From an uncultured Candidatus Bathyarchaeia archaeon (lineage in GTDB: Archaea > Thermoproteota > Bathyarchaeia > Bathyarchaeales > DTEX01): DNA of 34,326 nucleotides. The stretch lies in assembly GCA_964430035.1 (NCBI GenBank), contig CAYSEL010000077.1, forward strand, positions 1-34,326, given 5' to 3'. Shown here piece after piece: positions 1,102 through 34,326 of the stretch. The position numbers and the translations under genes were made by a program. Numbering within the stretch: position 1 is the stretch's first letter; every line of letters starts with the position of its first letter. Under the pieces are notes generated by a model, which saw only the letters and a program-made list of their open reading frames with translations, was not told the DNA's origin and did no database searches.

Positions 1102-3990
1102 TTACTCAATATATATTGCAGGTCTATAGGGTTTAGCTACGGATGCCCTTCCTTTGGGATCATGCTTCTCCGGCGATTCTTCATTATAAATTGAGATTTC
1201 AGCATTGAATTCTTTTTGCAGAAAGCTGGCAGCTTCAGCGAGCACTTTTTCCTCTTCTAATTTTTCAGCTTCTTTCTTTCTCTTCTTGATATTTTCTGGA
1301 GCTGAGTTGATCTCACCTATTATTTTGGAAACAAATTCGGATACTCTCTTGGCTTTCCCCTTTAACTCTGGATCTTTTAGGAGATCGCTGATGACATCTC
1401 GAATCTCAACTTTTTGTGCGATGGACTTCTCAATTATCTTGAGATAAACTTGCCATTTCCAATCCGCTGACACATAGTAGCAGATTCTTTTAGGTCTCAC
1501 CTCCGTCGCTTTAAGAATGCTGATGGTGTCCTCGATCAAGTCTTTGATTAAACTCTCTCCTTCCTCCACTTTGACGTCAACTCTTGAACTATCATATTTA
1601 GGCCATTCTGCAGTTGAGACAAATCTTTCCTTGCCAAGAAATTGCCAGAGTTCTTCGCTTAGATAAGGTGTAAATGGAGATAAGAGGCGAACCCATATGT
1701 CCGCGACTTCCCTTAAAACTTTGGGGTTAGGTTTCTCTGTCCGTCGAAGATACCAACGGACATCATTCCATATCTCGAAAAGAGCGACTTCGGCAGCTGT
1801 TCTAGTCTTTAACATTTCAATAGCCTTGGTAATGATGTCAATCCTTTTTTGAAGCGTTGAGAGTAACCACCGATCAACATTCTTGATCTTTTCTTCACCT
1901 GGAAGGTTAATTATTTCATTGACAAACTTGTATAGGGCTCTGAGTTTTCCATCTATGCTTCTCGCGTTCTCATCTCGCCAATCCGGGTCATCCATGTCTT
2001 CAGCTCCCAAGATTAGAGTTAGCCTTGTCACGTCCGCTCCGAAACGGTCGATTGCGTTCTTCAAGGTTATAAAGTTGCCCTTAGACTTTGACATCTTATC
2101 CCCCTCAATCGTTAAGACACCGTTAACCCCTATCCCTCTTGGCCAATGCTTTCTCGGGAACAAGGCGACATGTTGGAAGATGAAGAACGAAAGATGGTTT
2201 GGAACGAGCTCCTTGGCTGAGACCCTTAAATCAACAGGGTACCAGTATTCAAATTCTTCCCTCATATCCACCAAAACTTCACGGCTTAACCCTGACTCCG
2301 CTGCAACCTTTTCTAGATCTCCATCTCCGTAGAAGATGTAGTCGAAGACTTCATTTTTTAGCTGTTCAGCTCTAATGCCGTTTTGGCGGATGTGCTTCAC
2401 AATTGTGTAAAAAGCCATATAGATGGTGGAATCGCTTAGAGTCTCAACAATCCATTCTGGGCTCCACGGGAGGGGTGTGCCTAAACCTGTTCTCCGTGCA
2501 CATGCCCAGTCTCGTAGCCAATCGATTTTGTCATGGAAATAAACCCTTGCATCTTCAGGGTAAATTTTAGCTTTCTCAATTGCTTCATGAGCTAGTTTCT
2601 TCCATTCTGGATCCGAATACCGTAAGAACCATTGATCTGAAAGAACCTTTACGATGCAAGGGGTGGTGCATCGGCATATAACCTTATCGGGCAAGTCGTA
2701 CATTATGTCAGCAATATTGGCCCTCTTAAAGTCTTCTATGAGTTCAGCTTTCACTTCTTGAACTCGTCTGCCTGCATATCTGCCCGTAATGGACTTTAGA
2801 ATGCCGGTGTGAAACTCCTTCCTGTATATGATTGATGTTGCCTCATCGACCTTCGGATCAAATTGATCCTTTATACCCATCTCCTCAACAATCTCAACGC
2901 CCGGATAGTCTCCAAACCCTTCTATGCTGATAAGTGATATTGGTTTAATCGACTTTACAACTTCAGGATCGATACCGAACCTATCTAACTGTTCAGGCTT
3001 GGCAATCAAGTCCTTTAAGGCAATCCAGTCAGCTGGCGCATGAGCGGGAACACTATAGACGATGCCTGTTGCCGAGTTCGGATCCACAAACCATCCAGGC
3101 AGTATTGGAAGCTTTCGTTGAGTGATAGGATCTTCAAAATACTTTCCAATCAATTCTGCGCCTTTAAACTCACGTATTATCTCAACCTTCTTTAACTGTT
3201 CAGAGAGTTTCACGGAGGCTTCTCTACTGATAATCCATTTCTCACCGTCAACCTTTGCTTCAAAATATGTTGCGTCAGGATTAATGAACATGTTTGTGAC
3301 GCCATAAATGGTTTCGGGTCTAAAGGTTGCTGCTGGCAGATAAGCATCATCAAACCTAAACTTCAATAAAGTATACTCTTCAGGCGAGACGCCTTCGCCT
3401 TCAAGACGATCATGGTCTCCAGTTGGACTTTCACAGTTTGGACACCAGACAACTGGATGTGTTCCTCTGGTCACGAAGTCTTTCTTGCGAAGCGTCTCAT
3501 ATTGCCATTTGATAAAACTACTATAAGTTGGCTCAAGTGAGGTTGTATGGAACTCTCTTCTCCAATCTATTGAGAAACCAATTCTTTTAACCGCTTCCCT
3601 GCTTTCACGTGTATAATACTCAGCCATATAAACTGGGTCAACAAACCTTTTCAAATCTTCTTCTTTAACGCCGTCTATTTCCCTGAGCGCTTTTATCAAT
3701 TCTTTATCGCCCTTCTGCACACGTAGTGCTGCACCTACAATCGGCTCCCCTGTCCAATGCCAAGCCCATGGCCAAAGGGTATTAAAGCCTCTCATTCGCA
3801 TGAAACGTGCATAAACATCGACACGTGTTGCGGTGAAGCCGTGTCCTATGTGAAGTGGCCCGTTCATGTAAGGATATGGAAAAGTTATGAAACATTTCTT
3901 CCGTTCAGGATCAGGATCCGCCTCAAATATCCTTGCTTTCTCCCACTCAGACCTCCATTTCTCTTCGATCTCTCTCCATTTGAACGACAT
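1102..3990 (-). CDS. leuS: leucyl-tRNA synthetase (archaeal type)
   Basis: Class I motifs PLHIGHGFT (HIGH) and DKMSKSKGN (KMSKS). The ~960-aa length and CP1 editing insertion are typical of archaeal LeuRS. Start moved to ATG 3990 (MSFKWREIEEKW) so it does not overlap the alaS stop at 3995-3997. Confidence 0.9.
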   Translation of the reverse strand: MSFKWREIEEKWRSEWEKARIFEADPDPERKKCFITFPYPYMNGPLHIGHGFTATRVDVYARFMRMRGFNTLWPWAWHWTGEPIVGAALRVQKGDKELIKALREIDGVKEEDLKRFVDPVYMAEYYTRESREAVKRIGFSIDWRREFHTTSLEPTYSSFIKWQYETLRKKDFVTRGTHPVVWCPNCESPTGDHDRLEGEGVSPEEYTLLKFRFDDAYLPAATFRPETIYGVTNMFINPDATYFEAKVDGEKWIISREASVKLSEQLKKVEIIREFKGAELIGKYFEDPITQRKLPILPGWFVDPNSATGIVYSVPAHAPADWIALKDLIAKPEQLDRFGIDPEVVKSIKPISLISIEGFGDYPGVEIVEEMGIKDQFDPKVDEATSIIYRKEFHTGILKSITGRYAGRRVQEVKAELIEDFKRANIADIMYDLPDKVICRCTTPCIVKVLSDQWFLRYSDPEWKKLAHEAIEKAKIYPEDARVYFHDKIDWLRDWACARRTGLGTPLPWSPEWIVETLSDSTIYMAFYTIVKHIRQNGIRAEQLKNEVFDYIFYGDGDLEKVAAESGLSREVLVDMREEFEYWYPVDLRVSAKELVPNHLSFFIFQHVALFPRKHWPRGIGVNGVLTIEGDKMSKSKGNFITLKNAIDRFGADVTRLTLILGAEDMDDPDWRDENARSIDGKLRALYKFVNEIINLPGEEKIKNVDRWLLSTLQKRIDIITKAIEMLKTRTAAEVALFEIWNDVRWYLRRTEKPNPKVLREVADIWVRLLSPFTPYLSEELWQFLGKERFVSTAEWPKYDSSRVDVKVEEGESLIKDLIEDTISILKATEVRPKRICYYVSADWKWQVYLKIIEKSIAQKVEIRDVISDLLKDPELKGKAKRVSEFVSKIIGEINSAPENIKKRKKEAEKLEEEKVLAEAASFLQKEFNAEISIYNEESPEKHDPKGRASVAKPYRPAIYIE

Positions 3991-3994
3991 AAAA

Positions 3995-6772
3995 TTACAC
4001 TCCAATCTTTCTCTTAATAACCATTTTCGCCCTTTCTAAGGCTTTAGGCAACCCATCAACGTTTGTCCCTCCGCCTTGAGCAAATTCTGGCCTTCCACTT
4101 CCGCCGCCTCCTATCTCAATGGATGCTTCCTTAGCAATTTCACGGGCGTCAATGCCTAATCTTCGAGCTTCCTCTCCAACCATAGCGACGAGGCGTGCAT
4201 CTTTGTTTCTTGAAACAAGGATAACAACGGTCTTCGGATCCAACTTAACTATTACATCAGAGATTTTTATTAGTAAGTCAACTTTAGCATCTTTTGCGCC
4301 CATTATTCCAGATACAATTTTCAATCCAGAGAATACTTCAGCTGTTGAAAGAAACTTCTCAGCTAAATTTTTAGCAAGACTTTCTATGAGGTGTTCCTTT
4401 TCCCGGCGCAGTTCACGCCACTCTGAAATCGTTCGTTCAAGAGTCTTAGCAATCTTCTCTCTCGGCACTTCAAGGAGCTGAGAAACTTTTGAGATTTCAG
4501 CTTCTATCTCCTGTACGGCTTTAACCGCAGATATGCCGGCGCTGAAGATTATTCGTTCTACCCCGTCCTGTATTCTTTCTGTGCGGATAATCTTAATCAG
4601 ACCAACTTCGCCGGTGGTTTTGCAATGAGTTCCTCCACAAGCCTCAACCTCCCAGTCCCCAGTCTTCACAACCCTTATTTCACGGCCCGGAACAACTCCC
4701 CCCTGATAAAGTCTGAAGCCGTAAAGTCTTTCAGCCTCCTCTCTTGGAAGCCAGAAAACCTCAACAGGCATGTTTCTCATAACGACCTCGTTGGCTAACA
4801 TCTCGATTCTATTGATTTCGCTAGCAGTCAGCCTTTTAGGATGTGAGATGTCGAGACGGCTCTTTTCCACATCCTTTTGGGCTCCTGATTGCCAAACGTG
4901 CCCGCCAAGTATCCGCCTTGCGGCACCCATAATTATATGAGTAGCAGTATGATTTCTCATGAGGTTGGATCGACGTTCCCAATCGATTATGCCCTTCACT
5001 TCTTCACCTTCGTTTGGAAGGTCATCTTCCAAGAAGTGGATTATCACGGTCCCTGCCTTCTGAACATCTAGAACGCGGGACCGCTTCCCATGAAATTCTA
5101 GGTAGCCATGATCCGCCGGTTGACCGCCTCCTTCAGGATAGAACGCTGTCTTATCCAATGCCACGGCCCTATTGTAGACACGCAAAACTCTAGCTTCAAA
5201 CTCTGAGATGTAAGCGTCCTCATAGTAAAGCTTCTGTGTTTCAGCTATGCCTGAAAATACTTTCTCTAAGTCTTCTACAACCTTTGTTGTAGTGGCCTCC
5301 GACCGTTTAGGGTTCTCCACATGCCTTTGAGCAACATAGCTATAGAAATTGTCCGGCACATTTACTTTTACTCCTTCAGCCTCAGCCATCTCAACGATTA
5401 ATTCAGGTGTGAGACCGTGAGAGTCGTAGAGTTCAATTGTCTTTTTCAAAGGGATTTCGCTGGATCCACTCGTCTTCAGTTCATTGACAACTCTCTTAAT
5501 TAGATTCTTGCCTCTCTCAATCGTCTGTTCGTATTTTTCACTCTCAACAGCAAGCATCTCGAATATCTCGTTTCGCATCTCTTCAAGGTGCGGAAAATCT
5601 CTAGACCAACGAGATATCTGCATATCAATTATCTCGGGCATCATCTTCTCAATCGATAGGTTTTTCAGGAGCCTATATGTCCTCCTAATCATGAGCCTTG
5701 CGAGATAACCTTCTTGAACGTTCGAGGGGACAACTCCCTCAGCAAGAAGAAAAGTTAAACATTTGGTATGGTCTGCCACTGCGAAGACATTAATAATTGG
5801 GTCTATCGTGCGAGCAATTTCCTCCTCATCCAAACCTATCTTGGCGGATATTTTCTTCCAATTCTCAATTCGGCTGGATGTCTTGCCAGTTTCGATGATT
5901 CCAGAGATCTTCGAAATACTTGCCAAAAGTTTTTTATCTGGGGCTTCTATTCCAGCCATCTTCATTATTTTGTCTATGAGGTTGCCGTAGACGGCTTCGA
6001 ACCCGCTTATACAACCTTTCGAGAGCCAAGTAAACCTCTCCATGCCGTAGCCTGTGTCGACAGTTCGGATTGGCAACTCGACAAACTCGCCGTTGATAAC
6101 TTTGTACCTCATGAATACTAATGTTGCAACCTCTAAGCCTTGTATGATGCTCTCGAGGTCTGGACCGGCATTTCCTCCTCCGGACCATATTCCTTCCTTA
6201 TAGATGACCTCCTCAGATTTTATGCCTAACTCTTTAGTGACAAATTCATGATGCAGCTTTACGGTCTCATCTTTCCAATAGATTTCCTTGTTGGGATAGT
6301 TGAAGGCATGGTGTCCGCCCATCTCGAAGACTGTGAGGTGACGTCCAAAGGTGAGTCCAACACTTTCAACATCTGGAAATCTAAGGCATGGCTGGCTTAT
6401 CACCAGTGGGTTGGCTGGAGGTGGGATCATCCCTTCCGTGACATAGGGTTGGAAGTCGACTATGCTGGCGTTTGTAAAGTAGAGATCATCCCTCCAGCGT
6501 GCAACAACCGGGTAGGGCTTAATTCTCTTATGTCCCCTCTTTTCGAAGAAGGACAGGAAAGTCTCACGCATTTGCTCGAGACTATAAGGCTTTCGTGTCG
6601 GCGGGTTTCTGATGAATGAGTATTCTGCACAGCCATGAACCGAGGATTCGCCACATAATTTTTGGTCAATATTCTGTGTCCAAAAATTTTCTCCGCATTT
6701 AGGGCATAGTTTTCTTACGTAGCCATACTCTTCAAAGAATGGAAGGCGATATTCCGACTCTGGGAAATGCAT
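3995..6772 (-). CDS. alaS: alanyl-tRNA synthetase
   Basis: 925 aa. Archaeal AlaRS N-terminus with a CPKCG zinc motif. Editing-domain HTATHI and GGTHC motifs, and a C-terminal DHHA1-like GGGGSG. Confidence 0.9.
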   Translation of the reverse strand: MHFPESEYRLPFFEEYGYVRKLCPKCGENFWTQNIDQKLCGESSVHGCAEYSFIRNPPTRKPYSLEQMRETFLSFFEKRGHKRIKPYPVVARWRDDLYFTNASIVDFQPYVTEGMIPPPANPLVISQPCLRFPDVESVGLTFGRHLTVFEMGGHHAFNYPNKEIYWKDETVKLHHEFVTKELGIKSEEVIYKEGIWSGGGNAGPDLESIIQGLEVATLVFMRYKVINGEFVELPIRTVDTGYGMERFTWLSKGCISGFEAVYGNLIDKIMKMAGIEAPDKKLLASISKISGIIETGKTSSRIENWKKISAKIGLDEEEIARTIDPIINVFAVADHTKCLTFLLAEGVVPSNVQEGYLARLMIRRTYRLLKNLSIEKMMPEIIDMQISRWSRDFPHLEEMRNEIFEMLAVESEKYEQTIERGKNLIKRVVNELKTSGSSEIPLKKTIELYDSHGLTPELIVEMAEAEGVKVNVPDNFYSYVAQRHVENPKRSEATTTKVVEDLEKVFSGIAETQKLYYEDAYISEFEARVLRVYNRAVALDKTAFYPEGGGQPADHGYLEFHGKRSRVLDVQKAGTVIIHFLEDDLPNEGEEVKGIIDWERRSNLMRNHTATHIIMGAARRILGGHVWQSGAQKDVEKSRLDISHPKRLTASEINRIEMLANEVVMRNMPVEVFWLPREEAERLYGFRLYQGGVVPGREIRVVKTGDWEVEACGGTHCKTTGEVGLIKIIRTERIQDGVERIIFSAGISAVKAVQEIEAEISKVSQLLEVPREKIAKTLERTISEWRELRREKEHLIESLAKNLAEKFLSTAEVFSGLKIVSGIMGAKDAKVDLLIKISDVIVKLDPKTVVILVSRNKDARLVAMVGEEARRLGIDAREIAKEASIEIGGGGSGRPEFAQGGGTNVDGLPKALERAKMVIKRKIGV

Positions 6773-6982
6773 TCTTATCCATCTCTGAGAATATCCAATG
6801 CACCTACAAGTAAGGATATCACAAATTTAAATATATTCGGATAAGGATTAAAATGCGTATTTTTAGCTTAAATCATGCATGATCTTGTTGCATTTTATCG
6901 GAGGATTCAAAGGTTAATGCGGAAAATGCAGACACGAAAACCTAGACAGTTAGAGGAATTGAATTTTTGAAAGTTTCCCTAT

Positions 6983-7294
6983 CTAGCCGAAAAGCGCTCC
7001 AAGCCCTTCTAATGCTTCTTCCTCTTTCTTTTCTTCTTTCTTCTCTTCCTTAGGCTTCTCTTCAGCTGCAGGTGCGGATGGTACAACTGAAGGCGTTATA
7101 GCTGCTGCAGGCATGAAGAAAGGTGCGGACTTGATTGCCTCTTCAATATTTACTTCTGATATTGCTGCAATTAAGGCTTTGACTCTGGACTGGTCAACAT
7201 TGACTCCGGCTGCTTGGAGAACTTTTGTGATGTTCTCTTCATCAATAGGCTTTCCAGCTTTATGTAGAAGCATAGCCGCGTAAACGTACTCCAT
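6983..7294 (-). CDS. rpl12: 50S ribosomal stalk protein P1 (L12e)
   Basis: [12 protein letters not shown]-terminal dimerisation domain, Ala/Pro hinge, and the [21 protein letters not shown] acidic/hydrophobic tail typical of archaeal P1. Confidence 0.9.
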
Positions 7295-7461
7295 ATCTCA
7301 ATCACCAAACCATGTAATACTCAAACTTTCGAACATAGAGAATCTTATACTTAAATCTGTCGGAAAATTGGATGGAAAGCACGCTTAGGAAAGAACCTCT
7401 AAATTTGCACTGAGGTTATTAACGCTGAAAATGTGAAATGAAACCACCGAATGTGATACTC

Positions 7462-7468
7462 TTATATA
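7462..7468 (+). promoter_or_regulatory. candidate TATA box for the secE-spt5-L11-L1-P0 operon
   Basis: TTATATA lies ~50 nt upstream of the secE TTG, in the divergent intergenic region shared with the P1 gene. Assigned by position and sequence only. Confidence 0.3.
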
Positions 7469-7517
7469 GAGGACACTCCTTTTTTTGTCTAAGAATTGAA
7501 AAAGAGATGAGTCGAGT

Positions 7518-7697
7518 TTGGGCCTAGGGTCCTTTATAAGGTCATGTTTAAGGTTGCTTCACCTCGCAAAAAAGCCTAGCAAAAGTGAACTCTGGCAAAC
7601 TGTCAAGGTATGCGCTTTAGGTATAGTGACGATAGGCGCTTTAGGCTACATTATCAAGCTTCTCGCATCTTTTATAACAGGCAGCATCCCAGGATAG
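7518..7697 (+). CDS. secE: preprotein translocase subunit SecE (Sec61 gamma)
   Basis: Hand-translated; not in the ORF track because it is 59 aa with a TTG start. Sequence: MGLGSFIRSCLRLLHLAKKPSKSELWQTVKVCALGIVTIGALGYIIKLLASFITGSIPG*. It shows the KKP(S/T)KxE motif followed by a single TM helix, as in archaeal SecE (compare M. jannaschii RVWLVLKKPTKDEYLAVAKVTALGISLLGIIGYII, quoted from memory). It sits in the canonical position immediately upstream of spt5. Confidence 0.8.
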   Translation: MGLGSFIRSCLRLLHLAKKPSKSELWQTVKVCALGIVTIGALGYIIKLLASFITGSIPG

Positions 7698-7708
7698 GTG
7701 GTTGTGGA

Positions 7709-8185
7709 ATGAATGTAAAAGTTTCCGGCACGATGATCTACGCTGTGCGGACAACCGTAGGGCAGGAGAGAAACGTGGCTAACCTCGTAGCTAGTAGAGT
7801 GGAAGCGAACAAGATACCGATTAAAGCGATACTAGTACCTGAAACTTTGAAAGGATATATCTTCATCGAGGCGGAAGGACCGCACATCGTCGAAGAAGCT
7901 GTTTCAGGAGTAAAACATGTAAGATCAAGGGTTCCCGGAATCGTGTCTCTCTTGGATGTCGAGAAATATGTCGTTGTTAGACCAGTTATCGATGAACTTA
8001 GCATCAACGATGTTGTAGAGGTAACAGGTGGACCTTTCAAAGGAATGAAGGCAAAGATAACCTCCATAGACAGAGCAAAGGAGGAGGTAACCATAGAATT
8101 GTTAGAGGCCACTTTCACGCTGCCCATAACTGTTCACGCTGACTACGTGAAAATCACTGAAAAGGCGAGCAAAGAAGAAAAGTGA
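7709..8185 (+). CDS. spt5: transcription elongation factor Spt5 (NusG)
   Basis: NGN domain (IYAVRTTVGQERNVA) and KOW motif (VEVTGGPFKGMKAKITSID). The track ORF begins at 7610, but its first 33 codons overlap secE in another frame. ATG 7709 follows an AGGTGG SD at 7696-7701. ATG 7733 is an alternative start. Confidence 0.85.
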   Translation: MNVKVSGTMIYAVRTTVGQERNVANLVASRVEANKIPIKAILVPETLKGYIFIEAEGPHIVEEAVSGVKHVRSRVPGIVSLLDVEKYVVVRPVIDELSINDVVEVTGGPFKGMKAKITSIDRAKEEVTIELLEATFTLPITVHADYVKITEKASKEEK

Positions 8186-8198
8186 GTGGTGAGTGTGG

Positions 8199-8690
8199 AT
8201 GCCCGAAAAAAAAGTTATTGAAGCCCTTGTCAGCGGCGGACAAGCTACAGCAGGCCCTCCTCTTGGACCAGCGTTAGGTCCTTTAGGCGTAAATGTCCTC
8301 TCTATTGTCAACAAAATAAATGAGAAGACTAAGGAGTATGCTGGCATGAAGGTGCCAGTGAAAATAATTGTTGATGTCGAAACGAAAGAGTTTGAAGTAA
8401 CCGTAGGTATACCGACAACCGCCGCTCTCATTGTAAAAGAAGCTGGAATCCAGAAGGGTTCTGGAAAACCGAATTCTGAGAAAGTGGGTAACCTATCGTT
8501 TCAACAAGTGCTCAAAATAGCCAAGATTAAAAAGCCTTCCTTACTCGCTGGAGACTTAAAGGCGGCTCTAAAGGAGATAGTAGGAACTTGTGTGAGTATG
8601 GGCATGACAATTGACCAGAAGAATCCCAAAACTATTCTTCAAGAAGTCGACCAGGGAAGATATGATGAGATGTTGGCAAAAGAAGATTAA
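8199..8690 (+). CDS. rpl11: 50S ribosomal protein L11
   Basis: GGQATAGPPLGPALGPLGVN motif. ATG 8199 is preceded by GGTGA at 8188-8192. The track begins at GTG 8193. Confidence 0.9.
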   Translation: MPEKKVIEALVSGGQATAGPPLGPALGPLGVNVLSIVNKINEKTKEYAGMKVPVKIIVDVETKEFEVTVGIPTTAALIVKEAGIQKGSGKPNSEKVGNLSFQQVLKIAKIKKPSLLAGDLKAALKEIVGTCVSMGMTIDQKNPKTILQEVDQGRYDEMLAKED

Positions 8691-8744
8691 AAGGTAATGT
8701 TTTTATTACTGGCTTTCGATTTCTTTCGACTTAGGGCGTAAGAA

Positions 8745-9395
8745 ATGTCAGTAGAGACAAAAAACATCAAAGCAGCACTCAAAGAGATGAGGGAGAAATG
8801 CTTGAAAAGAAACTTTGACCAAGCAGTAGAGCTGATTATCAACCTAAGTGACTTAGATATGAAAAAACCAGAGGGAAGGATACAGGAGACCCTTGAGCTA
8901 CCTCGACCCCTCGGCAAGAAGATTAAGGTAGGTGTTTTTGCAAGCGGGGATATGGCTCTGAGGGCGAGGAGAGCTGGCGCAGACATTGTTCTTGAAGGTC
9001 CAGATATAGAAAGTTTAGCTAACAATAAAAAGAGACAAAGAAAGATAGCGAAGGAAATAGATTCTTTCATCGCTGCCGCTCCGCTCATGCCACTTGTAGG
9101 TCGGACTTTCGGTGCCATACTTGGTCCGCGGAATAAGATGCCTACGCCTATCCTTCCAACAGCTAACATTGAAGAAGAGATTGAAAAGCATAAGAAAATT
9201 ATACAGGTCAGAGCGCGTGGTCAACCAGTTATTCAATGTAGAGTTGGTGTTGAAAGCATGTCTGACGATGACATAGCTGAGAACATACAGGCGGTGATAA
9301 ACAAGGTAAAAGGAAAATTGAAGAGGGGGCTTAAAGATATCAGAACGATCTATGTAAAAACAACAATGGGTCCTGCCGTACCAGTAAAAATTTAG
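8745..9395 (+). CDS. rpl1: 50S ribosomal protein L1
   Basis: 216 aa, follows L11, and carries typical L1 segments (FDQAVELIINL, GPRNKMPTP, VKTTMGP). Confidence 0.9.
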   Translation: MSVETKNIKAALKEMREKCLKRNFDQAVELIINLSDLDMKKPEGRIQETLELPRPLGKKIKVGVFASGDMALRARRAGADIVLEGPDIESLANNKKRQRKIAKEIDSFIAAAPLMPLVGRTFGAILGPRNKMPTPILPTANIEEEIEKHKKIIQVRARGQPVIQCRVGVESMSDDDIAENIQAVINKVKGKLKRGLKDIRTIYVKTTMGPAVPVKI

Positions 9396-9406
9396 GGGAA
9401 TATAAA

Positions 9407-10255
9407 TTGCAGCGAAGATCACTTGTAAAGAAAGCCCAAAAAATTAAAGAAGTAATAGATTTAGTGAAAAGATATCAGGTCATCGGAATATCTGCTTTAC
9501 ACAAGGTTAGGGCGTCTCAACTTCAGGAGATTAGAAAAAAACTTGCTGGAACAGCAACTCTTCAAGTTATCAAAAATTCTCTTGTTGAAAAGGCAGTTTT
9601 AGAATGCAAAGATAAGCCGAACATCGAGATGATTAAGGAGCATTTAAAGGGTTCAAACCTCTTTCTCTTTACAGATCTCAACCCATTCAAACTTACCCTT
9701 CTTCTCGAAAAAAGTAAGGTGAAAGACTTTGCAAAAGCGGGAGACATAGCTACAGAAGACATAATAGTGCCGGCGGGAAATACTGGTCTATCTCCTGGAC
9801 CAGTCATAAGTCAGCTAGGCTCAGTAGGCATCCCCACAAGGATAGAGAGCGGGAGCGTCTGGGTTAGCAGGGACACGATCGTAGCCAAGAAAGGCGAGGT
9901 AATTTCCGAGAGTCTCGCACCAATCCTGTCTAAGCTGGGAATAAAAGCAGTTGAAATGGGACTGACGATTAAGGCAGTTTACGATGGGGGTGCTATCCTA
10001 ACAGAGAACGAGTTGAAGCTGAACTTAGACGAGTATAAAGAAAAAATTGGCGAAGTGTATGCAGAGGCACTAAAACTTTCCTTAAACGCTGCGTACCCGA
10101 CCGATGAGAATATCCAAATGTTGATTCAAGTAGCATTTACTGAGGTTTACAGCCTTGCTCTTAAAGCGGGTATTCCAACTCGTGAAACCATTAGGGACTT
10201 GATAAAGAAAGCCCATTTTGAAGCTCTTGCTTTATACTCTAGAATATCTGCTTAA
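9407..10255 (+). CDS. rplP0: 50S ribosomal stalk protein P0 (L10), C-terminally short form
   Basis: TTG start. The N-terminal L10 fold (KKAQKIKEVIDLVKRYQVIGI) and the PAGNTGLSPGP insertion domain are present. Two helices resemble the P1-dimer binding spine (IQMLIQVAFTEVYSLALKAG, TRETIRDLIKKAHFEALALYSRI). The protein ends at 282 aa with no acidic tail. Confidence 0.85.
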   Translation: MQRRSLVKKAQKIKEVIDLVKRYQVIGISALHKVRASQLQEIRKKLAGTATLQVIKNSLVEKAVLECKDKPNIEMIKEHLKGSNLFLFTDLNPFKLTLLLEKSKVKDFAKAGDIATEDIIVPAGNTGLSPGPVISQLGSVGIPTRIESGSVWVSRDTIVAKKGEVISESLAPILSKLGIKAVEMGLTIKAVYDGGAILTENELKLNLDEYKEKIGEVYAEALKLSLNAAYPTDENIQMLIQVAFTEVYSLALKAGIPTRETIRDLIKKAHFEALALYSRISA

Positions 10256-25470: not shown

Positions 25471-25854
25471 ATGTCAAAACCATTTTATGTAAAGTTTGAG
25501 GTCCCGAATGAGGTTGCAAATGCGGCATACGAAGCGTTACAAATATCTTCAAAAACTGGAACCGTCCGGAAAGGTACAAACGAGACTACGAAGGCCGTAG
25601 AGCGTGGACAGGCAAAGATGGTGGTGATAGCAGAAGATGTGGATCCTCCAGAGGTAGTCGCTCACTTACCTATTCTCTGTGAAGAGAGAAAGATTCCATA
25701 TGTCTTCGTTCCCAGCAAGGCTAAATTAGGCGCTTCAGTAGGCATAGAGGTTAACGCTGCAGCAGCCTGCATAATAGAAGCTGGAGAGGCTTCAGACCTA
25801 ATCAAGGAAATAGCAACAAGGATAATGAAGATCAAGGAAGGATCCAGCGGATGA
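25471..25854 (+). CDS. rpl7ae: 50S ribosomal protein L7Ae
   Basis: [43 protein letters not shown] is the canonical L7Ae/L30e K-turn-binding fold sequence. Confidence 0.9.
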
Positions 25855-34082: not shown

Positions 34083-34096
34083 AAAAACAAAAATAA
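34083..34096 (-). terminator. double oligo-T tract (minus strand) ending the hairpin array
   Basis: The plus strand reads AAAAACAAAAATAA, which is UUAUUUUUGUUUUU on the minus strand, ~30 nt beyond the last hairpin unit. It sits between the ligase stop and the array, so it can only terminate leftward transcription. Confidence 0.35.
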
Positions 34097-34124
34097 CCAT
34101 AAACCCAAGCTGAGTCTAAGCCTC

Positions 34125-34326
34125 AAGCGCATGACCAGCCCGGAAAGGCATTATCTTTAACGCATACTAGCCTTCAGCCGTTTCAGCTAGTATGCTCAAT
34201 GCCTTCCGCATTGCGCTTAAAGTATTGCCCGGCCCATTGAAGCAAGTCTTTATCGCGCACTAATCTTCAGCCGTTTGGATTAGCGCACTCTTGCTTCAAT
34301 GCAATACTTGAAGCATACTTCTCAGC
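34125..34326 (-). ncRNA. tandem array of ~93-nt three-stem hairpin units (2 complete, a third cut by the window edge), candidate novel structured RNA
   Basis: Unit A spans 34125-34218, unit B 34220-34309, and unit C starts at 34311. Each unit has stem 1 (7-9 bp), a 7-nt one-sided bulge (accagcc / cccggcc / tctcagc), stem 2 (11-12 bp), an asymmetric internal loop (atctttaac / tctttatc against 1-2 nt), stem 3 (10-11 bp), and an apical loop holding the identical 11-mer ttcagccgttt. Stem sequences differ between units but pairing is kept. Two A.C mismatches in unit B stem 3 on the plus strand become G.U pairs on the minus strand. Confidence 0.5.

Follow-up and report, generated by a model that had tools for sequence, protein, structure and literature searches.

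The window analysed here is the entire 34,326-nt contig CAYSEL010000077.1 of an uncultured Candidatus Bathyarchaeia archaeon, so that the window edge is the contig end. Bathyarchaeia are among the most abundant uncultivated archaea of sediments. The contig carries an archaeal housekeeping block with genes for AlaRS, LeuRS, uL10/P0, RpoD, enolase, GluRS, L7Ae, PheRS alpha and beta, FEN1 and an ATP-dependent DNA ligase. An exact look-up of this ligase returned no record, and its nearest homologues that bear source names are from Bathyarchaeia/Bathyarchaeota metagenome-assembled genomes. A structured element begins 27 nt past the ligase stop codon and is convergent with the ligase gene, in the window as well as in most relatives. 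An initial annotation had described it as an open-ended head-to-tail array of at least 2.2 hairpin units running off the window edge. Our analysis indicates that positions 34105–34326 of the minus strand very probably represent the gene, 4 nt short at the contig end, for a discrete two-domain pseudoknotted non-coding RNA (ncRNA) of Bathyarchaeia, ~229 nt in length, which would have a promoter of its own and end at a U-rich tract. This high confidence refers to the structure and the gene as well as to strand and gene boundaries; it does not extend to the mode of action.

The two hairpin units, A (34125–34218) and B (34220–34309), are readily seen in the sequence and in the fold. They are long interrupted hairpins joined by a single base, and they share their unpaired elements, that is an apical loop with ttcagccgttt, a one-sided tctttaNc loop and a one-sided 7-nt bulge, while their stems differ in sequence yet stay complementary. 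On all these points the initial annotation was accurate. Folded singly, the units adopt the same pattern (−36.9 kcal/mol for A and −34.4 kcal/mol for B), and on either strand the region as a whole adopts a more stable fold than its dinucleotide shuffles (z −5.0 and −5.5; 0/200 shuffles as good). In contrast, the bases from 34310 onwards, which had been read as the start of a third unit, form closing helices: gaagc (34310–34314) pairs with gcctc (34120–34124) and ctcagc (34321–34326) pairs with gctgag (34109–34114), whereas atactt (34315–34320) and tctaa (34115–34119) make up a conserved internal loop, J1. The ctcagc/gctgag closing helix is predicted by the minus-strand fold from the window alone. 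Instead of an array or a ladder-type precursor, the element thus represents a discrete gene that is closed by a terminal stem, within which lie exactly two homologous domains.

Read along the minus strand in RNA sense, the gene starts with the 5’ strand of the terminal helix P1 (GCUGAG, 34321–34326), which is cut by the contig end; CCAA, the transcription start and a TATA-like box lie outside the window and are deduced from 19 full-length relatives. It is followed by the 5’ strand of J1 (AAGUAU, 34315–34320; consensus R-A-G-Y-A-N with the G and the second A invariant) and by the 5’ strand of P2 (GCUUC, 34310–34314), with which the former ‘unit C’ began. The 5’ domain (unit B, 34220–34309) consists of S1, the bulge GGCCGGG (34228–34234), S2, the hinge GAUAAAGA (34247–34254) opposite a single A, S3 and the apical loop CAAACGGCUGAA (34266–34277). 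A single U (34219) links both domains at a three-way junction. The 3’ domain (unit A, 34125–34218) is built likewise from S1, the 7-nt bulge GGCUGGU (34134–34140), S2, the hinge GUUAAAGA (34154–34161) opposite 1–2 nt, S3 and the apical loop UGAAACGGCUGAAG (34172–34185). The 3’ strands of P2 (GAGGC, 34120–34124), J1 (UUAGA, 34115–34119, within the invariant block AGGCUUAGA) and P1 (CUCAGCUUGG, 34105–34114) complete the RNA, six base pairs (bp) of P1 being predicted by the fold within the window. A U-rich tract, UUAUUUUUGUUUUU (34083–34096), lies 9 nt downstream of the P1 3’ end and is a candidate archaeal oligo-U termination signal; it is the U5-G-U5 tract noticed initially. As judged from these alignments and folds, the RNA is Y-shaped, with a 10-bp P1, J1, a 5-bp P2 and two homologous ~90-nt domains joined by one nt, and the predicted order within each domain is S1, a 7-nt 3’ bulge, S2, an A-rich 1×8 hinge G-N-Y-A-A-A-G-A, S3 and a 12–14-nt loop.

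Relatives, covariation and strand

Relatives were collected from metagenomes with a pattern composed of three conserved single-stranded pieces, namely TCTAAGCCT, TCTT and TTYAGCYGTTT, the last corresponding to the loop motif whose search had been proposed in the initial annotation. The scan returned 54 loci, i.e. 50 relatives and four chance matches. When trimmed at the complement of the 10 bases preceding TCTAAGCCT, the relatives fell into two sharp length classes of 132–135 nt (28 distinct sequences) and 228–230 nt (16 distinct sequences plus L121, L126, L164 and the window), and none was longer. The one-domain form of ~133 nt is represented by 28 aligned sequences and two further ones found by a covariance model, the two-domain form of ~229 nt by 20 sequences including the window; no relative among the 50 had more than two units. 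The window copy can be aligned over its full length with the two-domain class, of which it misses only the first four bases. L121, L123, L126 and L127 each contain exactly two units, flanked on either side by sequences that are complementary to one another, and L131 contains one unit inside the same closing helices.

The covariance model was built from the one-domain alignment and 707 kb were searched in all. It detected one copy per locus, at orthologous positions, and no further copies in the rest of the 34-kb window, in the remaining loci covered or in 30 unrelated controls; dispersed near-identical copies, which would have pointed to a mobile element, were not found. Thirty-three of the 120 loci from an earlier, looser scan of genome contigs (18 specified bases with a variable gap; apparently nearly all chance matches) were also searched with the model, which added two members, L045 and L056, in Bathyarchaeia genome contigs. 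Viral contigs yielded no match to the pattern. The 5’ domain is the half most similar to the single domain of the one-domain relatives, and the one-domain model R1 matches it at 87.6 bits. As one-domain forms occur in all more distant clades, the two-domain form was probably derived by duplication in the lineage of the window.

Covariation of the stems, which the initial annotation expected to emerge once more copies were aligned, is found in both alignments. The one-domain alignment comprises 28 sequences with a mean column identity of 84%. In it, the nested structure P1/P2-S1/S2/S3 together with the pseudoknot described below places 96.4% of cells in standard pairs, as compared to 25–45% when the partners are slid by 1–3 columns. 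Thirty-eight of the 53 pairs change on both sides, and the observed values were reached by 0/500 shuffles on four of five measures and by 1/500 on the fifth. The two-domain alignment (20 sequences) gives 91.2% of paired cells versus 29–38% for the slid controls, with 52/88 pairs changing on both sides. In the one-domain alignment, P1 shows compensatory changes at 10/10 pairs, with 98.6% of cells paired; in the two-domain alignment, 98.5% of its cells are paired. The P2 strands 34120–34124 and 34310–34314 pair in 100% of cells across the 20 two-domain sequences, including a conserved U.G, and the S1–S3 helices of the 3’ domain are 82–89% paired, with compensatory changes at 22/31 pairs. In addition, the window and L121 lack one base per strand in S2 of the 5’ domain at paired positions (two-domain alignment columns 42 and 89; window ~34240/34291), which provides independent support for this helix. 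S2 (12–13 bp) and S3 (11 bp) have matched lengths and are almost free of insertions and deletions across the family. A consensus proposed by RNAalifold for the two-domain set, pairing S1 of domain 1 with S2 of domain 2, was rejected, as it leaves 6/20 cells broken at a variable pair; the S1 pairing adopted instead shows A-U/G-C covariation (10 versus 8).

The unpaired positions are constrained as well. About 25 unpaired purines, located in J1, the hinge and the loop flanks, are invariant or nearly so. J1 is the most conserved block, its 3’ strand GGC-UUAGA-CCC facing the 5’ strand R-A-G-Y-A-N: the UUAGA columns are invariant in 28/28 one-domain sequences, and in the two-domain set UUAG is invariant in 20/20 and the last A in 19/20 sequences (L121 differs). 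Mutual information among unpaired columns, inspected for further tertiary pairs, revealed clade-level correlations only.

Several observations assign the RNA to the minus strand, in agreement with the initial annotation, which had pointed out that two plus-strand A.C mismatches in S3 of unit B become G.U on the minus strand, as can be read directly. The minimum free energy is −92.8 kcal/mol on the minus and −74.1 kcal/mol on the plus strand, i.e. the minus strand is 19 kcal/mol more stable. When the helices are read on the minus strand, 160 G.U pairs stand against 67 A.C pairs. A U.G conserved in P2 (24/28 one-domain and 19/20 two-domain sequences) and another one, nearly invariant, in the pseudoknot would both be A.C on the plus strand, and the covariance model scores ~151 bits on the minus versus ~26 bits on the other strand. 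The stem covariation in the relatives, this strand asymmetry and the conserved single-stranded elements together argue for a structure-selected minus-strand RNA.

As to gene boundaries, all clades, even those whose neighbouring genes differ, have an A/T-rich TATA-like box (TTATATA, TTAAAT or ATAATATA) that ends 23–26 nt before P1 begins, and this is the spacing expected of an archaeal promoter. Downstream of P1, T-rich tracts are present at variable distance in most orthologous loci (34083–34096 in the window); archaeal RNA polymerase terminates at oligo-T. The gene would accordingly be transcribed from its own promoter, with the TATA-like box at this distance from P1, and end at the U-rich tract. 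There are no open frames in the element, stops being present in all six frames. A coding repeat, to which the unit length of 93 nt (31 codons) might have corresponded, was rejected: every frame contains stops, TAG and TGA are mixed in the best frame, and the neighbouring genes use the standard code.

The loop–bulge pairing

A pairing that was absent from the initial annotation links apical loop and bulge in each domain. The loop core reads C(G/A)GCU and is matched by a complementary GG(C/U)(C/U)G in the 7-nt bulge of the same domain. In the 3’ domain, GGCUG (34136–34140) would pair with the loop CGGCU (34176–34180; 100% of cells in 20 sequences, with a compensatory U-A in L121; duplex −4.4 kcal/mol), and in the 5’ domain GGCCG (34230–34234) with CGGCU (34269–34273; 100% paired, 3/5 pairs changing on both sides; duplex −6.6 kcal/mol). 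All five pairs are possible in 40/40 domains of the two-domain set and in 27/28 one-domain RNAs. The G/A of the loop tracks the C/U of the bulge: G:C, A:U and G:U occur, A opposite C never does. Three double changes fall at otherwise constant positions, namely in both domains of L121 (loop UGGC with the bulges GCCA and GCUA) and in domain 1 of L126 (loop CAGU with the bulge ACUG). The loops are thus indeed conserved, as initially claimed, but they are not simply displayed. Since the loop core pairs with the bulge of the same unit, the idea that the repeated AAACGGCUGAA loops serve as free multivalent binding sites is weakened. We propose that the loop–bulge pairing is intramolecular, whereby S3 would fold back beside S2 at the A-rich hinge to generate a compact domain of side-by-side helices. 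The matched and conserved lengths of S2 and S3 fit what such a fold-back needs.

The following points weigh against a discrete, pseudoknotted gene with this fold. The search pattern required three motifs, so their invariance is partly imposed; stems and bulge are outside the pattern, and as the retrieval motifs are all single-stranded, the covariation of the stems is no search artefact. Not every locus has a T-tract immediately behind P1, L123 reaching its first long run of T about 30 nt downstream, and the transcript with its ends and stability is predicted from the sequence. The sole recurrent neighbour, a gene for an orphan protein with a nuclease fold (see below), is absent beside the RNA in four clades, and no protein partner was identified. 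One relative, L139 (150–281 on a 1.1-kb contig), has the bulge GGGCAAA in place of GGGCYGG and lacks the pseudoknot complement, whereas the other structure is kept, which could reflect a genuine loss or an artefact of sequencing or assembly. Finally, the intramolecular loop–bulge pairing, pairing with the bulge of the other domain and loop–loop kissing all score 99–100%, so that percent pairing cannot separate them; L126, with a C.A mismatch, is the sole case that disfavours the cross-domain version.

These scores are also what one would expect if the RNA assembled with itself, through intermolecular loop–bulge pairing or pairing of the quasi-palindromic loops, into dimers, rings or filaments, the two-domain form being bivalent. 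The HIV-1 dimerisation site provides a precedent, as it consists of a palindromic loop hexamer flanked by adenines. In the RNA described here, the loop hexamer CAGCUG/CGGCUG likewise has flanking adenines and is self-complementary, wobble pairs counted, in 40/40 loops of the two-domain set and in 25/28 one-domain RNAs, and its sixth base, G, is conserved yet has no partner in the intramolecular pseudoknot. However, the self-complementarity largely follows from the bases the pseudoknot needs, and three one-domain RNAs (CGGCUA) break it. Loop–bulge pairing is favoured over loop–loop pairing because it alone explains bulges that change together with the loops, as in L121 and L126, and the matched, conserved lengths of S2 and S3 are as an intramolecular fold-back would require. 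We therefore regard self-assembly as unlikely and retain the intramolecular pairing.

Comparison with known RNAs and elements

The initial annotation had placed the element outside the described RNA families, and this holds. Rfam 15, including its models for signal recognition particle (SRP) RNA, RNase P RNA, 5S rRNA, riboswitches, ribozymes and HgcC/E/F/G, gave no match in the whole window at gathering scores. When the RNA alone was scanned with permissive filters, chance-level matches were obtained (E 0.28–9.5), the best reaching 17.9 bits versus a cut-off of 40 (STnc310) and 14.6 bits versus 35 (CRISPR repeat). A literature search by topic and by sequence motif retrieved no paper on the RNA or carrying its motifs. 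SRP RNA, RNase P RNA, 5S rRNA, twister, hammerhead and hairpin ribozyme were also weighed, and none fits. By these comparisons of its sequence, the RNA is a new structured-RNA family of no assignable known kind.

Archaeal guide RNAs deserve closer comparison. Like archaeal box H/ACA small RNAs (sRNAs), the family comprises stable RNAs with a number of homologous irregular hairpins (one, two or three in the H/ACA case) that varies between lineages. Unlike them, it has one-sided internal loops (1×8 and 0×7) rather than a two-sided pseudouridylation pocket, an enclosing terminal helix and a loop–bulge pseudoknot. Moreover, hairpin 1 is followed by the single U and hairpin 2, and hairpin 2 by GAGGC of P2, leaving no ACA/ANA box. 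A box C/D sRNA, in which a short terminal stem unites a C box (RUGAUGA) close to the 5’ end with a D box (CUGA) close to the 3’ end, is not supported either, as UGAUGA is found nowhere in the RNA and CUGA only inside the apical loops. In these loops, GA...GA is present, but a 3-nt bulge before the first GA is missing and unit B is devoid of the first GA, so that they contain no standard K-loop. The 3’ strand of J1, GGC-UUA-GA-CCC, is conserved and fits the bulged strand of a kink-turn, i.e. an L7Ae site (C-stem, 3 nt, G-A, NC-stem), and the organism encodes L7Ae (25471–25854). However, the opposite strand of J1 has the six bases R-A-G-Y-A-N, in which the invariant G and A are not adjacent, and three extruded positions would be needed. 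A kink-turn at the hinge loop was rejected, since its register conflicts with the co-varying pair at columns 42–88.

Further systems resemble the RNA in architecture. In the P4-P6 domain of group I introns, two helical stacks are linked by a hinge and the distal apical loop docks at the proximal base, which places the helices side by side. Our RNA may work in a similar manner, as it combines the A-rich one-sided hinge GAUAAAGA and an S3 matching S2 in length with an apical loop that reaches the bulge below S2. The contact would consist of 4–5 Watson-Crick or wobble pairs rather than a GNRA tetraloop and its receptor, there is no relation in sequence or in Rfam, and the side-by-side geometry is predicted from helix lengths and pairing. 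The pRNA of phage phi29 is ~120 nt long, and its loop–bulge pairing (~4 nt) is intermolecular and builds a ring on the viral portal. Both RNAs share paired 5’ and 3’ ends, a similar size and a co-varying complementary loop and bulge. They differ in that the present RNA resides in a chromosomal housekeeping context with no matches in viral contigs, has helix lengths compatible with intramolecular docking and shows no sequence similarity or Rfam match. With the orphan bacterial ncRNAs raiA, OLE, ROOL and GOLLD it has in common that they are lineage-restricted, highly structured, rich in invariant unpaired purines and pseudoknots, and were found by comparative analysis; it is archaeal, lacks homology to any of them and is much smaller than OLE, ROOL and GOLLD.

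The ~25 near-invariant unpaired purines, the conserved tertiary fold and the modular, duplicable domains might also suit a self-cleaving ribozyme or a trans-acting ligand aptamer, whose catalytic or binding pocket would be made up of pseudoknot, hinge and invariant purines, the two-domain form then resembling tandem riboswitch aptamers. We consider this distinctly improbable: no ribozyme or riboswitch model matches, no gene that could be regulated follows downstream in the same orientation, the helices of 11–13 bp are much longer than in small ribozymes, and a conserved candidate site for cleavage was not found.

RNAs that dock to the tRNA elbow do so by means of T-loops (PMC4810234). In this context, it is of note that J1 and P2 (window 34115–34124 and 34310–34320), which comprise the most conserved bases of the RNA, resemble the A1067 loop of helix 43 (H43) of 23S rRNA: GGC-UUAGA ... 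(R)AGYA(N)-GCU compares with GGC-UUAGA-AGCA-GCC in E. coli. By copying this loop (GGCUUAGA followed by AGCAGCC), with P1 inserted after UUAGA, the RNA could mimic the ribosomal GTPase-associated centre or dock to the tRNA elbow, binding uL11, translation GTPases or tRNA. The E. coli 58-mer with GGCUUAGAAGCAGCC is 23S rRNA, and the J1 strands map to contiguous positions (GGCTTAGA at 3212 and GAAGCAG at 3218; L186 3212–3224). UUAGA also fits the U-N-N-R-A pentamer of a T-loop. However, 8-mers shared by the RNA and the E. coli rRNA operon are as frequent as expected by chance (11 observed versus 11.8 expected), which makes the resemblance a lead rather than evidence. The independent information amounts to about four extra bases only (p ~0.01 by our own estimate), and the match is not statistically compelling. 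The 10-bp P1 interrupts the loop and would change its geometry, helix 44, which packs with the 3’ half of the H43 loop, has no counterpart, and the Rfam models for the large ribosomal subunit do not match. Such mimicry appears quite doubtful to us.

An open-ended tandem array of at least three units, providing a multivalent sponge or scaffold or a ladder of ~93-nt products, can draw on the two adjacent homologous units with their single-nt join and on a contig that ends inside the element. It is rendered highly improbable by the closing helices formed between the bases after unit B and those before unit A, by the 19/19 full-length two-domain relatives that end 4 nt past the last base of the window, by the absence of more than two units from all 50 relatives, 30 of which have one, and by loop cores that are paired, not free. 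Known repeat systems do not fit either. CRISPR arrays, which the initial annotation had rightly set aside, are excluded by the presence of two units only, a number never exceeded in the family, by conserved pieces that are short (5–14 nt) and by variable pieces that form self-complementary stems. TIGR arrays are multi-unit, have variable unpaired spacer segments and lie beside a Nop-domain Tas gene; here, the variable segments are base-paired and co-varying, there are at most two units, and the gene tables list no Nop-domain protein within 10 kb in L121 or L123.

Genomic surroundings and possible role

The RNA gene sits in a chromosomal context and is flanked by the ligase gene, the gene for the orphan protein and housekeeping genes. 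Contigs carrying ligases 75–85% identical to that of the window are syntenic and have the element directly behind the ligase gene, in convergent orientation. In L163, ~1.27 kb (6637–7905) separate ligase and RNA as compared to ~30–70 nt elsewhere, corresponding to an insertion between both genes. The close linkage, at 27 nt in the window, might suggest a cis-acting part of the ligase mRNA, i.e. a plus-strand 3’ untranslated region (UTR) or terminator, or an antisense regulator of ligase. There is very little room for such a role: the same RNA occurs without an adjacent ligase gene in L165, L152, L135, L141/L182, L151 and L180, does not overlap the ligase frame, and the strand evidence favours the minus strand.

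Each unit is, at the DNA level, an imperfect palindrome of ~90 bp with one-sided extrahelical bases, superficially like attC, but a miniature inverted-repeat transposable element (MITE) or repetitive extragenic palindrome (REP), an attC-like site or an origin hairpin acting as single-stranded DNA or cruciform is the least credible reading, given a single copy per locus at orthologous chromosomal positions, no near-identical copies in the 707 kb searched and no match in viral contigs, a strand-asymmetric pairing in which conserved G.U would be A.C on the other strand, a loop–bulge pseudoknot and a fixed-distance promoter that are hard to explain in this way, no cassette open reading frame (ORF) at the 1-nt join between the units, ligase, orphan protein and housekeeping genes as neighbours, and no integrase, transposase or Orc1/Cdc6 gene in the adjoining gene tables and ORFs examined. 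Array, mobile or DNA-level palindrome, ligase 3’ UTR and coding repeat are effectively excluded.

In ligase-keeping clades of both the one- and two-domain form, the RNA gene and a gene for an orphan protein of ~215 aa (L131 5126–5776; L121 12259–12897; L123 12383–13030; L127 5365–6042; L165 3458–4090) diverge from a common promoter region, divergent transcription of the two being present in most relatives; the window contig ends before the protein gene. This adjacency is kept in L165, where the ligase side is replaced. The protein family has 2,546 matches, and all with a source name are ‘hypothetical protein’ of Bathyarchaeia/Bathyarchaeota. Searches of Pfam, NCBIfam and PDB sequences returned no match to the orphan protein. 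Its AlphaFold model is confident (pLDDT 92), and all Foldseek matches in the PDB are PD-(D/E)xK nuclease folds (XisH, SfsA, R2 endonuclease, Bax1, Can2, Cas4), each of them weak (E≥3.9e-3). Among the invariant residues of the protein are E56, D82, E95, E97 and K120. Neither sequence nor fold analyses of the protein gave a functional link to the RNA. In four other clades, the RNA is located beside unrelated genes, namely those for an MFS transporter, winged helix-turn-helix proteins or a TrmB-like regulator; one clade has genes for Csa3 and a Cas6-like protein at this place. The RNA therefore has no evident obligatory partner gene. In the last case, L135, the RNA adjoins two genes (298–978 and 985–1878), which encode Csa3 (CARF-HTH; TIGR01884, E 2e-36) and the Cas6-like protein (TIGR01877, E 2e-7, below cut-off). 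This adjacency is probably coincidental, because a near-identical RNA in L152 has other neighbours.

As to function, our preferred, though speculative, view is that the molecule may be a stable, trans-acting structural RNA that acts as a protein-bound particle. The ~25 invariant unpaired purines in J1, the hinge and the loop flanks would form a functional surface, and J1 could serve as the fixed recognition platform of the particle. The domain would be a module which, by its doubling in one lineage, offers two equivalent binding or tertiary units. Candidate binding proteins encoded on the window contig are uL10/P0 (9407–10255, in the block 7610–10255) and L7Ae (25471–25854), at distances of 8–25 kb from the RNA gene. 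To our knowledge, very few archaea-specific structured ncRNA classes exist beyond the universal ones and guide sRNAs. A rather long shot is that the RNA is the founding member of an undescribed archaeal class, in which a pseudoknot-locked portable module, present in one or two copies, fulfils a role new for an archaeal cellular RNA, such as self-assembly (compare phi29 pRNA and ROOL/GOLLD) or docking to the translation apparatus through the A1067-like loop.

Taken together, an apparent array running off a contig can be resolved via orthologous loci, in this case into a compact RNA that combines unusually complete covariation support with a long-range pseudoknot and provides a clean case of domain duplication. 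A covariance model derived from these alignments would permit its annotation across archaeal genomes, and the sizes of 133 and 229 nt suit in vitro work. The degree of constraint implies that this RNA has an important function in Bathyarchaeia that lies outside current annotation.

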